Shown: positions 8,168 through 47,200, counted from the first letter of the stretch. The stretch: DNA of 64,000 bases from an uncultured Alphaproteobacteria bacterium (GCA_944391375.1 CALXTJ010000001.1:49729-113728), one strand, 5' to 3'. The notes: generated by a model from the sequence alone, not told the origin. Numbers and translations are program-made.

Positions 8168-9139
8168 ATGAGTACATTTACCGTTTTAGAATCCGTTTTA
8201 AGACCTTTGGCGTATTGGTATAATCAGGATAACATAGAGGAAGTTGCCATCAATCGTTCCGGTCAAATATGGCTGCGTTTGCGAGGCAAAAGAGCTTATC
8301 CGTGGGTAATGTATAAAGATGAAAAGCTCACCAAGGAGTATTTAACCGATTTACTGTATATTGTGGCCAACACTTATGAGCTGCCGTTTGATCCGATACA
8401 AGGTTCGCCGGTGGTGTATGCCACAATTCCCGGAGATCACCGTTTTTCGGCCATAGCCGGTCGGAATATTATGTATGATCAGGACGATTTAACCGGAGGC
8501 GTGGCGTTAACCATTCGTGTTCATAGCGATGAAGTGGCTTTTGGTCTTGGTGACTATGGTTTGCAACAAGGTAAAGCTTTACACAAAATCAACCCGCTAA
8601 AACAGATTAAAGATCCGGAAGATCCTTATGAGAGATTGCTGTTAAGTATTAAACGAGGTGACCATATTTTAGTCAGTGGTGCCACTTCAACAGGTAAGAC
8701 CACTTTTTTAAATAACTTACTCAAAATTTTGGATATACATAAACGCATTGTAACCATAGAAGATACACGAGAACTTATAGTTCCCCATCCTAATCGTGTA
8801 CATTTGGTATTATCTCGTACTGAGCAAACCAATGAGATGGACTATGCCAAAATTATTGACTTGGTGGTTCGTTTTACTCCCGATGCGATAATCGGAGGTG
8901 AGATTTCCACAAGCAATGCCGGAGCGTTGTGGGAGTTGATGGGTTCCGGTCACGATAACTGCTTAGCAACTATTCACGCCGAAAGTTCGGAAGCTGCCTA
9001 TCAAGCGTTTACGGACCGAATTTTGCATACATATCCCAGTATAGACAGGGCCAAGACCATAGAAGAAATGCGTCAAAAGTTAAGGGTTGTACAAATCAAT
9101 CGTGACGGCAACCTGCGTGCAATTACGGAAATTACCTAA
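8168..9139 (+). CDS. virB11: VirB11-family type IV secretion ATPase (323 aa)
   Basis: The Walker A region reads ILVSGATSTGKTTFLNNLLKIL, followed by IVTIEDTRELIV, which is typical of VirB11/TrbB hexameric traffic ATPases. A GGAGAG ribosome-binding site lies upstream, and the gene starts 9 nt after the virB10 stop. Confidence 0.85.
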   Translation: MSTFTVLESVLRPLAYWYNQDNIEEVAINRSGQIWLRLRGKRAYPWVMYKDEKLTKEYLTDLLYIVANTYELPFDPIQGSPVVYATIPGDHRFSAIAGRNIMYDQDDLTGGVALTIRVHSDEVAFGLGDYGLQQGKALHKINPLKQIKDPEDPYERLLLSIKRGDHILVSGATSTGKTTFLNNLLKILDIHKRIVTIEDTRELIVPHPNRVHLVLSRTEQTNEMDYAKIIDLVVRFTPDAIIGGEISTSNAGALWELMGSGHDNCLATIHAESSEAAYQAFTDRILHTYPSIDRAKTIEEMRQKLRVVQINRDGNLRAITEIT

Positions 9140-41639: not shown

Positions 41640-43304
41640 ATGTTAAAGTCGCTTTCCATTCGCAATGTGGTTTTAATTGATAAACTGGACTTAGATTTTA
41701 CCTCCGGATTAAATGTTTTCAGCGGCGAAACCGGAGCCGGAAAATCTATTTTACTGGATTCTCTGGGTTTGATTTTAGGCAATCGGGCGGAAACGAGTTT
41801 AATCAGACAAGGTGCGGATAAATTGACGGTAAGCGGCAGTTTTGAAATTGCCGATAAAAATAATCCGTTTTTTAAGCTATGTGCCGAAAACGATTTGGAA
41901 ATTGATGATGAAATTATCATTAAGCGTTCATTAAGCACGGACGGCAAGGGAAAAATATTTTTAAATGACCAGCCGATAACCGCAAGGCTTTTAAAAGAAT
42001 TGGGAGCTTACTTGGTTGAAGTTCATGGTCAGTTTGATAATCAAGGATTATTAAATCCGGCCACCCACTTGCAGGTTTTGGATTCGTTCGGCGGTTATGA
42101 TGAAGAGCTTGAAACGACGGCCTCGGCATACCGTAAATATCAAGATTTAAGTAAAAAATTAAGTCAGGCACAAGCTGCTTTTAATGAGGCGGTAAAGGAG
42201 GAGGATAATCTTCGCCATTGGGTAGATGAGCTGGAAAAAGCCAAAGTTAAAAAAGGTGAGGAAGAAGAGCTTAACCGCAAACGAACGGAGTTAATGCATG
42301 CCGAAAAAATTATGGAAGGATTAAATACGGCGTATTCATCATTGCACGGCAGAGATATCGGTTCTTTAATACAAAAAGCTCAAGGAGCGTTATCTAAAAT
42401 AAACGGCTTGACGGGTGGTAAGTATGAAGAGATTGAAAAATCTTTGGATTCGGCATTGATTGAGTTGGATGAAGCGGTAAGTTTAATAGAACAGGCTTCG
42501 CAGGATATAAACATTACCTCCGGCGAGGCCGACAGCATAGAAGAAAGATTATTTGCACTTAAAGCATTATCCCGCAAGCACCAAGTCGGCATAGATGAGT
42601 TGCCGGAAGTATTGCTTAAATTTAAGGGAGAATTGGCGGCTCTGGATAAGGGCGGCGAAGATATTGCCGATTTACACAAAGCGGTAAATATCGCCCAAGA
42701 AGAATATTTCAAAGCGGCCGAAAGATTGAGCGAGTTGCGTAAAAAAGCGGCAAGTATTTTAGATAAAGCGGTTATGGGAGAATTAGCTCCGTTAAAAATG
42801 GAAAAAGCCAAGTTTGTAACCGAAATAAGTAGGGTAGAAGAAGGCGAATGGAGCGAAAGGGGCTTTGATAGGGTTTGCTTTACGGTTGCCACCAACTTAG
42901 GCTCACCGCAAGGAGCGTTAAACAAAATAGCCTCCGGCGGAGAGCTGGCTCGTTTTATGTTAGCCTTAAAAGTTAATTTAGCCCAAAAGAGCAGTGTTGA
43001 GACATTAGTTTTTGATGAAGTGGATTCGGGTATAGGCGGAGCCACGGCTCAAGCGGTGGGAGAGCGTCTGGCAAGATTGGCCAAAAAAGTGCAGGTTTTA
43101 TTAGTAACACACTCGCCGCAAGTTGCATCATTTAGCGACGAACATTTTAAGGTGTTAAAGCAAGCCGAAAATGGTACGACATTAACAAAAGTTTACAAGT
43201 TATCGGCGGCAGAAAAGAAGGAAGAGATTGCCCGTATGTTATCGGGAGAAAAAATAACCGATGCCGCCCGAGCCGCTGCCGAGGCCTTAATTGTAAACGG
43301 ATAA
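41640..43304 (+). CDS. recN: DNA repair protein RecN
   Basis: An N-terminal Walker A region (FSGETGAGKSILLDSLGL), a long coiled-coil middle, and a C-terminal LVFDEVDSGIGG. Confidence 0.9.
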   Translation: MLKSLSIRNVVLIDKLDLDFTSGLNVFSGETGAGKSILLDSLGLILGNRAETSLIRQGADKLTVSGSFEIADKNNPFFKLCAENDLEIDDEIIIKRSLSTDGKGKIFLNDQPITARLLKELGAYLVEVHGQFDNQGLLNPATHLQVLDSFGGYDEELETTASAYRKYQDLSKKLSQAQAAFNEAVKEEDNLRHWVDELEKAKVKKGEEEELNRKRTELMHAEKIMEGLNTAYSSLHGRDIGSLIQKAQGALSKINGLTGGKYEEIEKSLDSALIELDEAVSLIEQASQDINITSGEADSIEERLFALKALSRKHQVGIDELPEVLLKFKGELAALDKGGEDIADLHKAVNIAQEEYFKAAERLSELRKKAASILDKAVMGELAPLKMEKAKFVTEISRVEEGEWSERGFDRVCFTVATNLGSPQGALNKIASGGELARFMLALKVNLAQKSSVETLVFDEVDSGIGGATAQAVGERLARLAKKVQVLLVTHSPQVASFSDEHFKVLKQAENGTTLTKVYKLSAAEKKEEIARMLSGEKITDAARAAAEALIVNG

Positions 43305-43323
43305 GACTTATACTGATTTTAAT

Positions 43324-44262
43324 CTACTTATCAGCGAATTGTTCAATAATTGACAGTTGCCCAGATTCAATTAGTTTATTCATGTATTTTCTTTTCACTT
43401 CGTTAATAAAATCTTTTATAGCCTCAGGATGATTCTTTAAAAACCATTTTATATGATTTTCAATATAATTTAACCTTATAACATCATCATTTAGATCGTT
43501 AGGTATGCGTTTCATTCTTTCATCTATACTATCAAAACCTTTAAATGGCAAAGATAAACGTGTTTTTGCTATTTGTATATATTCTGGGTTTATATCAATA
43601 CCTATGGCTTTTCGGTTTGTTTGTTGGCAAACTCTTAAAAGAGTTCCGCTTCCAACAAAAGGATCTAGAATTATATCATTTTCATTTGAAGAAGTCAGTA
43701 CAATCCTTTCATAAAGACCTTCAGGCTTTTGAGTTGGGTGTAGCTGTCTGTTTTTATTACAGTAATGCATATGAGAAAATTCCCATACATTTCCCGGATT
43801 TGCCCCTCTCATATTATTGATAGAGCGATAAAATTTTTGAGGGACTCTAACAGCATCAATATTAAACACATATTTGGATTTATTTTTTGTAAAAAATAAA
43901 ATATCATCATGTCTTGGCGAGAAGCCTCTGGTCTTTCCAATGCCTTGGGTATAAAACCAGGTAATCCAAGAATTAAAATATAAACCTAATTCTTTTTCCA
44001 TAATTACATAAATATAAGATATATATTTCATTCCCATAAAAACATATATTGAGCCGTTTTTAGAAAGTATTCTGTAGGCTTCTCTAAGCCATTCCCTAGA
44101 AAACTGTATATACTCTTCAAAAGCCAAGCAATCTTGGTTATTCCCATAATCCTTATTTAGATTGTACGGAGGATCCGTTACAATTAAATTTATACTTTCT
44201 GTAGGAATTTTTTTCATTTCATCAATAGCGTTTCCACAAATTAATTTTAAGTTTTTATCCAT
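43324..44262 (-). CDS. Beta-class N4-cytosine or N6-adenine DNA methyltransferase
   Basis: Motif IV is IVTDPPYN near the N-terminus, motif I is DPFVGSGT near the C-terminus, and an HPTQKP motif is present. The gene lies in AT-rich DNA. Confidence 0.8.
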   Translation of the reverse strand: MDKNLKLICGNAIDEMKKIPTESINLIVTDPPYNLNKDYGNNQDCLAFEEYIQFSREWLREAYRILSKNGSIYVFMGMKYISYIYVIMEKELGLYFNSWITWFYTQGIGKTRGFSPRHDDILFFTKNKSKYVFNIDAVRVPQKFYRSINNMRGANPGNVWEFSHMHYCNKNRQLHPTQKPEGLYERIVLTSSNENDIILDPFVGSGTLLRVCQQTNRKAIGIDINPEYIQIAKTRLSLPFKGFDSIDERMKRIPNDLNDDVIRLNYIENHIKWFLKNHPEAIKDFINEVKRKYMNKLIESGQLSIIEQFADK

Positions 44263-45011
44263 TTATTTTTTTTTGCCTCTCTATAAAAATCTTCTATAGT
44301 TCTCCTTGAGGAATGAAGGTATTTTTTATCTAATAACTGACACATTTCCCAAGTGGTTCTGTACTGATAAGTTACATAATGTATATCTTTAATCTGGATT
44401 TGTCCTGTTCCTAAAGCAGGATTATAACTAATATCATTATCCCCAATATACTTTAGATCGTAGGCATTATAGCCTACAATTTCCATTACTCCATCCACTA
44501 ACCCTGAATTTTCATTACGTTCAGAATAGACTTTATGTTTTATTGATAATAAGATAAACATAAAATCAGGATCTTTTACATATGAAGTGCGAATACGAGA
44601 AAAAGAAGTTATATTAGGACCTCTACCGCTATTAGGTATATCATTAGCTGTAGCTTTAACATCTATATTTCCTGTCAAGACTCTATCATCTTTTCTGAAT
44701 TGTAAAATAATGTCTGCCATTCCTAAACGTTCTTGTGTTTCAACATTAATAAGAGCATAGATATTATCTTTTGAATCTCTTATACCAGAAAAAACCTCAC
44801 CAGCCCAAGCCTCTACCATAGGTCCAGCAATTTTATTTATATTTTCAAGAGGTAGTCCTAATTTTAAATTAGTGTTTATAACTATCTTATTGTCACGAGC
44901 ACTTTTTCTTTCATCTAAAATATGTATAATTTGCTTCACTACAAAGTCTGAATCCTCTTTGTATGAGGCAGACTCTTTGGGTATTTTAAAAATCATATCT
45001 TCATATTTCAT
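44247..45011 (-). CDS. Putative type II restriction endonuclease paired with the methyltransferase
   Basis: A 254-aa orphan ORF immediately upstream of the MTase, overlapping it by 16 nt. It shares the AT-rich composition and I recognise no family. Confidence 0.5.
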   Translation of the reverse strand: MKYEDMIFKIPKESASYKEDSDFVVKQIIHILDERKSARDNKIVINTNLKLGLPLENINKIAGPMVEAWAGEVFSGIRDSKDNIYALINVETQERLGMADIILQFRKDDRVLTGNIDVKATANDIPNSGRGPNITSFSRIRTSYVKDPDFMFILLSIKHKVYSERNENSGLVDGVMEIVGYNAYDLKYIGDNDISYNPALGTGQIQIKDIHYVTYQYRTTWEMCQLLDKKYLHSSRRTIEDFYREAKKNKWIKT

Positions 45012-45039
45012 AATATCAATCCTAATAACAAATTTTAGT

Positions 45040-45495
45040 CTACTCCAAGCCTTTGAGCTTGTTTTTAATATCTTCGGGGATGCGGATGGGACGCTTTTTG
45101 CTAAGGCTTACATAAACTACCTTAACATCAATTACCGCCAAAACTTCATCACCTCTTAAAATTTCCTGATGCATAACCGCCGAGGCTCCGCCGTCTTCGG
45201 TAAGCTCACAAGAAACGGTGAGCAAATCATCTAACTTGGCAGAAGCTTTATAATCAATTTCCAAATGCCGTACCACAAAGCCGCACATATCGCCTTCCAA
45301 AGCATTTTGTTGCGGAGCCGCTCCGATATAACGCAAAAATTCGGTTCGGGCTCTTTCGGCAAATTTTAAATAGTTGGCGTAGTAAACAATCCCGCCGGCG
45401 TCGGTATCTTCATAATATACCCGTGCCGGAAAAACAAAAACTTTACCGTACATGCTACCTTGCGGAGAAGTTATTTCAAAACTCATTTTCTTCAT
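45040..45495 (-). CDS. ybgC: Acyl-CoA thioesterase YbgC (hotdog fold)
   Basis: …[30 protein letters not shown]…. Confidence 0.8.
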
Positions 45496-46555
45496 CCCTT
45501 TCTATGTTGGAAAGTAAATCAAACTGTTTGTTATCGGTTTTAATTTTGGGGTGTGCAATACCCATATATTGACATCCTAAATCAGAGATAATTCGGCCGC
45601 GGGGCGTGCGTTGAATAAAGCCCAGTTTTAATAAAAACGGTTCCACAACCTCTTCAATGGTATCGCGTTCCTCCGAAAGAGCGGCAGCTAAAGTATCGGC
45701 TCCGACCGGACCTCCGCCGTAATTTACGGCAATACATTTTAAGTACCGTCTGTCAAAAGCGTCCAGTCCATAGTTGTCAACATCCAAACGCCGCAAAGCG
45801 GTATCGGCAATTTTATTGTCAATTTCGCTGCCGCCGCTTACGGCTCCGAAATCGCGAACACGACGAAGCAATCTGCCGGCCACACGGGGCGTACCGCGAG
45901 AGCGTTTGGCAATTTCCAAAGCTCCGTTGTCGGAAATGGGCATACCCAGTAAAGCAGCTCCCCTTAACACAATCTTTTTAAGCTCCTCATGAGTGTAAAA
46001 ATCCAACCGCAAAGGAATGCCGAAACGTTCACGAAGCGGAGTTGAAAGCAAACCGGAACGGGTGGTGGCACCGACTAAGGTAAAGGGTTGCAAATCTATT
46101 CTGACCGAACGAGCCGAAGGACCTTCACCGATAATTAAGTCTAACTGAAAATCTTCCATGGCCGAATATAAAACTTCTTCAATGGCCGGATTTAAACGGT
46201 GAATTTCATCAATGAAGAGCACATCATTAGGCTCTAAGTTGGTTAAAATTGCCGCTAAATCGCCGGATTTGGTAATCATCGGTGCTGAGGTTGCTCTAAA
46301 GCCCACTCCCAACTCTTTGGCAATAATGGAGGCCAGGGTTGTTTTACCCAATCCCGGAGGGCCAAAAAGCAAAACATGGTCAAGAGCCTCGTGTCTTTGT
46401 TTGGCCGCTTCAATAAAAACTTTTAAGTTTTGGCATACGGCAGTTTGCCCCACAAAATCGGCTAAGCATTCCGGACGCGTATTAACCGGAGCATTGATAT
46501 TGTTTCTTTCATCTTCGGGTTGAGGATGCGGACTGACCAATCTTTCTTTTTCCAT
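45476..46555 (-). CDS. ruvB: Holliday junction branch migration ATPase RuvB
   Basis: Walker [15 protein letters not shown], plus sensor motifs. Confidence 0.95.
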
Positions 46556-46558
46556 GGC

Positions 46559-47200
46559 TTAAAAATCCTTTCTGGCAAATTCTTTTAAGGATAAGCGGAT
46601 TAACTCTGATACCGATTTATCGGCATTTTCGGCATAAACCTTAGATACAACCTTATAGGCCTCTAACCGCTGATAACCTAGGTTGATTAGAGCCGAAATA
46701 ACATCTTCAACCGTATCGCTTGCAGCTTCGGATAATGGTGTGGCAGACGGTATGGTATCATCGCCGGCAATATCGCCCAAACTTACATCACCGGTTGGAA
46801 TGGTAACGATTTTATCTTTTAATTCGGTAACAATACGAGCCGCCAGTTTAGGGCCTACGCCGCTGGCTCTTAAAAACGAACTTTTATCCTGAGCGGAAAC
46901 CGCCTGAGCAAGCTGCGAGGGATTGAGAGCCGATAAGATACTCAAGCAAACTTTAGCCCCAACGCCTTGGACTTTGGTTAAAGTATTAAACCACTCTTTT
47001 TCCCAAGCATCATAAAAACCGAACAAAGATATGCTGTCTTCCCGGACAACGGTTTCAATCAAGAGCGAAACCTCCGTTCCTTTATTTAATCTTCCGAGAG
47101 TTTTGGATGAGGCTGATACCAAATAGCCCACGCCGTTTACATCAATAATACAGCAATCTTCATAAACGCTGTCAACAATTCCACGCAATTTTGCAATCAT
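46559..47200 (-). CDS. ruvA: Holliday junction DNA helicase RuvA
   Basis: MIAKLRGIV…, plus HhH motifs. Confidence 0.9.
   Translation of the reverse strand: MIAKLRGIVDSVYEDCCIIDVNGVGYLVSASSKTLGRLNKGTEVSLLIETVVREDSISLFGFYDAWEKEWFNTLTKVQGVGAKVCLSILSALNPSQLAQAVSAQDKSSFLRASGVGPKLAARIVTELKDKIVTIPTGDVSLGDIAGDDTIPSATPLSEAASDTVEDVISALINLGYQRLEAYKVVSKVYAENADKSVSELIRLSLKEFARKDF

Follow-up and report, generated by a model that had tools for sequence, protein, structure and literature searches.

Between recN and the ybgC-ruvB-ruvA genes of an uncultured, gut-type alphaproteobacterium lie two overlapping genes, both on the minus strand (Table 1). The locus was analyzed within a 64-kb stretch of DNA, which is referred to here as a whole as the window. 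The upstream gene of the two encodes a 254-aa protein predicted to be a restriction endonuclease and the downstream gene a 312-aa protein predicted to be a DNA methyltransferase; gene and product are called R in the first case and M in the second. A first-pass annotation had proposed a type II restriction-modification (R-M) pair at this position, and both open reading frames, their strand and the 16-nt overlap are seen directly in the sequence. Read in the frame of R, the sequence at the overlap is AAT AAA TGG ATA AAA ACT TAA, and the ATG of M lies inside it.

Table 1. Features of the R-M locus and its surroundings. Positions are counted from the first nucleotide of the window.
Feature	Position	Strand	Description
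recN, left flank	41640-43304	+	convergent with M; Pfam SMC_N and AAA_23; homologues named RecN in their sources
Acquired segment, whole	43305-45046		1742 nt; stands in place of an ancestral site of ~116 nt
recN/M spacer	43305-43323		19 nt between convergent stop codons; left insertion junction
M	43324-44262	minus	312 aa; beta-class DNA methyltransferase gene, M.HpaI-like; predicted N6-adenine methylation in GTTAAC
R/M overlap	44247-44262	minus	16 nt; end of R and start of M; read from the sequence
R	44247-45011	minus	254 aa; restriction endonuclease gene, R.HpaI orthologue; predicted homodimeric Mg2+-dependent PD-(D/E)XK enzyme
Spacer, ybgC stop to R start	45012-45039	minus	28 nt; AGGA Shine-Dalgarno at 45023-45020
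ybgC (acyl-CoA thioesterase)	45040-45495	minus	NCBIfam TIGR02799, E = 1e-43; 3' end altered
ybgC-ruvB-ruvA, right flank	45040-47200	minus	
Sole GTTAAC site in the window	8506-8511		within a 323-aa ORF (8168-9139, +)

The base composition of the pair sets it apart from its surroundings. The GC content of positions 43305-45039 is 0.300, as compared to 0.415 for the rest of the window (z = -5.1), and is the minimum among 1177 windows of equal length. GC3 is 0.19 in R and 0.23 in M, versus ~0.40 in the flanking genes. Both genes had been described as more AT-rich than their flanks, and when computed their composition is indeed atypical. A controller gene, in the form of a small helix-turn-helix gene beside R, is absent: the flanks measure just 28 and 19 nt, and the 1742-nt segment holds no extra coding-strand ORF. 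The pair differs in this respect from type II R-M systems controlled by a C protein, such as PvuII and BamHI. No mobility gene was seen in the cassette.

Predicted activities of R and M

R was matched by no Pfam or NCBIfam model, and a sequence search of the PDB gave chance matches only. The PADLOC model for type II restriction endonucleases matches R over its full length (E = 4e-125), and more than 3000 homologues were found, nearly all of them 253-256 aa long and, among the loci examined, at least 58% identical. The ORF had been called an orphan, a description that this match and these homologues do not allow. Source names were missing for almost all of the homologues, and the HpaI label was obtained with an HpaI sequence as the query. 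The HpaI system has an R of 254 aa and an M of 314 aa whose genes overlap by 16 bp, and this organization pointed to HpaI. The query sequence is 100% identical to the UniRef entry 'Type II restriction enzyme HpaI, Haemophilus parainfluenzae, T2H1_HAEPA', and R is 70% identical to R.HpaI over 253 of 254 aa, without gaps (E = 1e-136). The organization was confirmed by two contigs (L097 and L098) whose R proteins are 98% identical to HpaI; in both, a gene for a 254-aa R is followed by one for a 314-aa M, with an overlap of 16 nt.

An alignment of 28 homologues was used to locate conserved residues. D100, D117 and K119 are invariant, and R shows no substitution at any of the invariant positions. 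D100 falls in a predicted strand (98-107) and D117-V118-K119 in the adjacent strand (110-122), and all three are putative catalytic residues. The predicted fold of R superposes on SwaI and HincII, members of the EcoRV-like, blunt-cutting branch of PD-(D/E)XK enzymes, and the alpha/beta core is present. SwaI, HincII and EcoRV share just 12-20% sequence identity with R and differ from it in recognition site and in DNA-contacting elements. Orlowski and Bujnicki (2008, PMC2441816) count HpaI itself among the PD-(D/E)XK enzymes whose assignment was validated by mutagenesis. R is accordingly modeled as a PD-(D/E)XK endonuclease with an EcoRV-like fold. A literature search on M.HpaI and R.HpaI found only HpaII or cloning-vector uses.

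M carries the motifs TDPPYN (aa 28-33, with DPPY at 30-33), HPTQKP (aa 175-180) and FVGSGT (aa 202-207), which is the beta-class order recognized in the first-pass annotation. It matches Pfam PF01555 (N6_N4_Mtase) with 233 bits (E = 4.5e-69; gathering cut-off, 26.7 bits) and PADLOC MTase_II with E = 1e-91. The 314-aa methyltransferase of L097, taken as the M.HpaI comparison sequence by its place beside a near-HpaI R, is 68% identical to M, without gaps, over 294 aa. The region from motif VIII to motif X, the expected target-recognition stretch, is conserved between the two proteins.

Comparison with enzymes of known structure was used to assess the base methylated by M. The best PDB match is M.BceJIV (8URK, 9C3U; E = 1e-39). 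Four N6-adenine enzymes (M.BceJIV, MboIIA, RsrI and CcrM) matched M with E values of 1e-39 to 1e-28; DpnA is a further N6-adenine match, and the N6-adenine enzymes as a group span 1e-39 to 1e-21. The N4-cytosine enzymes gave far weaker matches, with one entry at 1e-12 and PvuII at 2e-10. M thus appears to be nearer to the N6-adenine than to the N4-cytosine enzymes, and adenine is the probable methylated base. The enzyme had been likened to both PvuII and RsrI, with either N4-cytosine or N6-adenine as the product; that description is better narrowed to RsrI-like or BceJIV-like N6-adenine enzymes.

M.BceJIV, from Burkholderia cenocepacia (PDB 8URK, 9C3S, 9C3T and 9C3U), recognizes GTWWAC and makes m6A at position 5, and this methylation blocks cleavage by HpaI (PMC11380664). 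Like M, it is a beta-class enzyme with DPPY and FxGxG motifs. It differs from M in being an orphan regulatory methyltransferase and in having a degenerate site; its target-recognition region is ~11 residues longer than that of M, and M has a C-terminal extension of ~75 aa relative to it that is common to M.HpaI-like proteins. Residues Y68, H147, D148, H205 and K218 of M.BceJIV align with identical residues in M. In contrast, R180, W188 and T106-W107-Q108 are unmatched in the HMMER alignment, in which the region from motif VIII to motif X is aligned with gaps. A transfer of specificity from the M.BceJIV-DNA structure was attempted and dropped: residues of the catalytic site and part of those at the minor groove could be aligned, whereas the alignment of the recognition region was unreliable. 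Because that region is gapped and several base contacts are not conserved, the solved structure leaves the specificity of M unfixed.

Target-site specificity and avoidance of GTTAAC

Occurrences of GTTAAC were counted in the window and compared to a maximum-order Markov expectation. The site was seen once, as compared to 20.9 expected (Poisson P ~2e-8); among the 1916 hexamers expected 12 times or more, none is more strongly depleted. All 18 of its one-mismatch neighbors occur at about the expected frequency. Among 80 host loci encoding an R homologue (see below), pooled counts gave 33 GTTAAC sites against 76 expected, a depletion of only ~2.3-fold that nevertheless ranks third among 4057 hexamers. 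A depletion of 20-fold in the host requires restriction pressure, but this copy of R need not be its source.

These counts bear on whether the pair might recognize some other site, either a degenerate one (GTWWAC or GTYRAC) or an unrelated hexamer. Specificity may change between homologous type II enzymes. The closest methyltransferase of solved structure recognizes GTWWAC, and HincII, the second-best fold match of R, cuts GTYRAC. However, the identity to the HpaI pair is 70% for R and 68% for M, without gaps in either case, and GTTAAC alone is depleted. The related sequences are at expectation: GTAAAC was seen 18 times (18.1 expected), GTTTAC 28 times (21.0), GTCAAC 11 times (11.3) and GTTGAC 8 times (12.5). 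Recognition of a different site is, in our judgment, very unlikely. GTTAAC is the predicted target of both enzymes, on the basis of orthology and of site avoidance.

A sister lineage that lacks the pair (described below) has 3 GTTAAC sites in 11.5 kb, where 5.6 are expected. Two of these sites can be aligned to the window, in which they read ATTAAC and GTTAAT. At a nucleotide divergence of 8-13% two sites are too few for significance, and the fit of these mutated orthologous sites to directional avoidance is suggestive only. Avoidance in the window extends to many other palindromes, and its pattern is not the same in the sister lineages.

The recN/ybgC junction in the window and in a sister lineage

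Relatives without the pair, which the first-pass annotation had proposed for a comparison of synteny, were found in two metagenome contigs (L088 and L089). Both have the order lpxC-bamD-recN, a 108-nt spacer and ybgC-ruvB-ruvA, with no R-M genes. Their RecN is 95% identical to that of the window, and the flanks share 87-92% nucleotide identity. Similarity by blastn between the window and this empty site extends up to 43304, the end of the recN stop codon (TAA), and resumes at 45047, inside ybgC; the DNA in between is therefore taken as the acquired segment (Table 1). What was lost in exchange is the ancestral ~116 nt, consisting of the 108-nt spacer together with the last two codons and the stop codon of ybgC. 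Because the junction lies inside ybgC, the YbgC protein ends in ...KLKGLE* in the window and in ...KLKGFA* in the empty-site relative. No target duplication was seen by eye at the junctions.

The spacer of the empty site can fold into a hairpin, with energies of -15.8 and -18.5 kcal/mol for its two strands (z = -2.9 and -3.7), flanked by runs of A and T. These features fit a bidirectional terminator. In the window, the DNA between recN and M forms no terminator hairpin, with a folding energy of just -4.7 kcal/mol (z = -0.4).

The pair is present on every one of the 12 contigs that encode a RecN identical to that of the window. An identical R protein is present on 22 metagenome contigs, with the same genomic context in all six places examined. 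Relatives with a RecN 74-76% identical to that of the window have other genes after recN and no adjoining R-M pair. One more distant relative has a 230-aa ORF after recN, with no match to a defense family.

The presence of an empty site in the sister lineage indicates an insertion event, and the pair appears to have entered the host lineage by horizontal transfer and to have been inserted between recN and ybgC. An insertion next to the ybgC-ruvB-ruvA block had been proposed earlier, and it now draws on the empty site and on the low GC content of the islet. One argument offered for it falls away. The position of ybgC beside recN instead of tolQ had been read as a trace of the insertion, but the empty-site relative already has ybgC facing recN, with no tolQ nearby.

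The same arrangement could have arisen in the opposite direction if the pair were ancestral at recN/ybgC and the sister lineage had lost it by deletion. A single empty-site lineage was recovered, and the event is not directly polarized by the more distant relatives, in which recN is followed by different genes. Nevertheless, the islet is 11.5 GC points under the genome, with a GC3 of ~0.2, and at the empty site the putative bidirectional terminator hairpin is well formed and the end of ybgC complete, unlike a deletion scar. The relatives with a RecN 74-76% identical all lack the pair beside recN. In addition, 80 genomes from many phyla, as well as a small plasmid, carry the same cassette in unrelated surroundings. 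An ancestral pair lost by deletion consequently has very little probability, and insertion is the preferred reading of the junction.

Distribution of the family and expression of the pair

Loci encoding an R homologue were collected from GTDB species genomes. In the 80 loci examined, the R homologues are 58-84% identical and the M homologues 57-77% identical to those of the window. A homologue of M lies directly 3' of R on the same strand in 79 of the 80, and a short overlap similar to that in the window is present in most. The hosts belong to Bacillota, Verrucomicrobiota, Spirochaetota, Fibrobacterota, Synergistota, Planctomycetota, Pseudomonadota and other phyla, and none of the 80 shares the neighboring genes of the window. 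The pair was also found on a 6-kb mobilizable plasmid of Acinetobacter junii. The GC content of the cassette is below that of its flanks in 71 of 72 hosts (mean, 0.37 vs 0.49). DNA similarity between copies of the cassette is limited to the two ORFs and at most ~20 nt upstream of the R ATG. An inspection for donor flanks or flanking repeats showed that similarity to the nearest copies (~76% identical) does not extend past the ends of the ORFs.

The lack of a nuclease fold or activity in the product of the 254-aa ORF, together with the absence of this ORF from related methyltransferase loci, had been named as the sign of a solitary methyltransferase. What was found is a pair that stays together in 79 of 80 loci and an R with a predicted PD-(D/E)XK fold, invariant D100, D117 and K119, and orthology to HpaI. 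The original suggestion that this ORF is the likely cognate endonuclease is thereby strengthened. The pN of R is 0.10-0.13 relative to the closer gut copies and 0.21 relative to the HpaI-proper locus, and that of M is 0.12-0.16, with pS at 0.65-0.86. The low pN, with pS near saturation, indicates strong purifying selection on both R and M across the family.

Carriage by phages is rare, with 2 matches in IMG/VR and 0 in INPHARED. On one phage contig (L103), the methyltransferase is accompanied by a remnant of R that is truncated at its 5' end. A truncated R gene is also present at one genome locus (L069).

These two cases demonstrate that decay of R occurs in the family, and it could be supposed that in the window only M is functional and that R is inactive or decaying, which would effectively leave a solitary methyltransferase. 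R in the window is, however, full length, with the same 254 aa as HpaI. It retains all of the invariant residues of the 28-sequence alignment, D100, D117 and K119 included, and the protein is identical in 22 metagenome contigs. The 20-fold depletion of GTTAAC in the host also argues against loss of restriction, with the reservation that the pressure need not have come from this copy. An inactive R is therefore improbable, with only a small chance of being correct.

Judged by its sequence, the pair is a member of the long-known HpaI family, and each defining feature open to testing was found. The R of the HpaI system of Haemophilus parainfluenzae (GTT^AAC) has the same length as R in the window; the HpaI-proper loci L097 and L098 have the same order of R and M and the same 16-nt overlap, and neither the HpaI-proper locus nor the window pair includes a controller gene. 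The differences are modest in the proteins, with 314 aa in the M of HpaI-type loci as compared to 312 aa here and ~30% of residues differing. They are larger in the setting: the host is an alphaproteobacterium and not a member of the Pasteurellaceae, and the pair, unlike HpaI, occupies the recN/ybgC junction, apparently fused to the ruvAB-ybgC operon. In summary, it is highly probable that the segment is a complete Type IIP R-M system of the HpaI family, with an R predicted to cut GTT^AAC and an M predicted to methylate adenine at N6, acquired horizontally between recN and ybgC.

By orthology, R would be an Mg2+-dependent homodimer whose cut falls at the center of unmethylated GTT^AAC and leaves blunt ends. 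M would use SAM to methylate N6 of an adenine in GTTAAC on both strands, as expected for its family, and host DNA would thus be protected. The blunt cutters nearest to R in predicted fold are consistent with these activities, as are the DPPY motif of M and its proximity to N6-adenine enzymes. The 16-nt overlap likely couples translation of M to that of R. As with type II systems generally, the pair would act in defense and could also act as an addiction module.

No convincing promoter for the pair was found: the scan gave 13 matches as compared to 13.6 expected, and the only local match straddles the R start codon. Because the distance from ybgC to R is only 28 nt and no terminator separates the two genes, co-transcription with ruvA-ruvB-ybgC is most likely, and the anatomy of the locus suggests that the pair would be read as the tail of that transcript. 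Control of the ruvAB-ybgC-R-M transcript by the SOS response was also considered. An alphaproteobacterial LexA box (GTTC-N7-GTTC, with at most 1 mismatch) was not found upstream of ruvA, and matches across the window are at chance level (30 vs 37 expected); an SOS coupling is therefore unsupported.

A stronger form of the co-transcription proposal is that the ancestral terminator was deleted and that a promoterless cassette, 28 nt behind ybgC, may now be expressed only in the form of distal genes of ruvA-ruvB-ybgC, as a domesticated, operon-embedded R-M system. This is a speculative possibility that we regard as unlikely. If it is true, the level of a DNA-breaking enzyme would be tied to the level of the Holliday-junction repair machinery, the M and recN transcripts could collide, and the arrangement would be a small new variation on the regulation of R-M systems without a controller.

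The finding matters little beyond annotation. The predicted GTTAAC/m6A specificity is useful for methylome binning and for genetic manipulation, in which incoming DNA could be pre-methylated or GTTAAC avoided. The locus is a clean example of an R-M cassette whose insertion junctions are resolved to the base pair and for which a sister lineage supplies the empty site. The HpaI family, which had one member in the 2008 classification (PMC2441816), now has more than 3000 homologues in many phyla. The 20-fold loss of target sites in the sequence of the carrier fits the general view that R-M units are minimal mobile elements and influence the oligonucleotide content of their hosts.

Gene content at the recN junction

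In the sister lineage in which the site is empty, the convergent recN and ybgC genes share a bidirectional terminator, and this terminator has been removed in the window by the insertion of the R-M pair. Here, recN and the methyltransferase gene converge across a 19-nt gap without a hairpin, and their transcripts may therefore collide. The gene content after recN varies among relatives: recN is followed by recR-ybaB-dnaX in one lineage and by a 230-aa ORF, overlapping the end of recN by 4 nt, in another. This ORF gave no above-threshold match in Pfam or PADLOC, and its sole signal was a faint N-terminal methylation motif. Separately, OprB-family porin genes are present as a tandem pair in the empty-site contigs and as one copy in the window; the extra copy contains one of the GTTAAC sites of these relatives.

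Coordinates of the features discussed
Feature	Locus	Position	Remarks
Convergent gap, recN/methyltransferase gene	window	43305-43323	
recN/ybgC spacer holding the terminator	L088	6666-6773	sister-lineage contig
Tandem porin genes	L088	9082-11457	
Tandem porin genes	L089	7287-9671	sister-lineage contig
Region after recN	L090	6684-9393	relative
Region after recN	L092	6680-7372	relative
M.HpaI-like methyltransferase + R remnant	L103	3788-5106	IMG/VR viral contig, 49.5 kb
R-M pair	L001		Acinetobacter junii plasmid p2_010059, NZ_CP028799.2; 6-kb MOBQ mobilizable plasmid
HpaI-like pair	L056	9973-11532	Clostridia MAG

Carriage of the R-M family

The methyltransferase of the phage contig is full-length (314 aa, 73% identical), and the match of the ORF located 5' of it is confined to R residues 197-254. 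This methyltransferase looks like an orphan carried by the phage and descended from the present R-M system, possibly serving self-protection. On the A. junii plasmid both genes are found, with identities of 64% for R and about 60% for M, and this mobilizable plasmid is one plausible means by which the family spreads. In the one Clostridia MAG, the distance between the pair and the ruvB and ruvA genes is about 3 kb, which is probably a coincidence because this proximity is absent at every other locus.

Palindrome avoidance and its apparent turnover

Depletion of palindromes in the window (1-64000) extends far past GTTAAC. ATTAAT ranked second among depleted hexamers (3 seen, 38.2 expected), and the depleted tetramers included TCGA (seen/expected 2/154), GCGC (2/82), CTAG (6/48), ACGT (14/121) and GATC (75/218); CCGG was in excess, with 393 copies compared to 112 expected from base composition. 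This pattern points to several further restriction systems acting on the genome, for example one of ATTAAT specificity. Within the 64-kb window, no methyltransferase ORF with a [DNS]PP[YFWH] motif was found other than M.

Avoidance differs by lineage when the window is compared to its relatives (L088-L093). The GCGC counts in L090-L093 (103/92 and 57/54) show no depletion, in contrast to the strong depletion of this tetramer in the window. TCGA is absent from L092 (0/23), and in L088 the values are 6/39 for GATC and 3/5.6 for GTTAAC. From these counts, restriction-site avoidance appears to turn over among closely related lineages.
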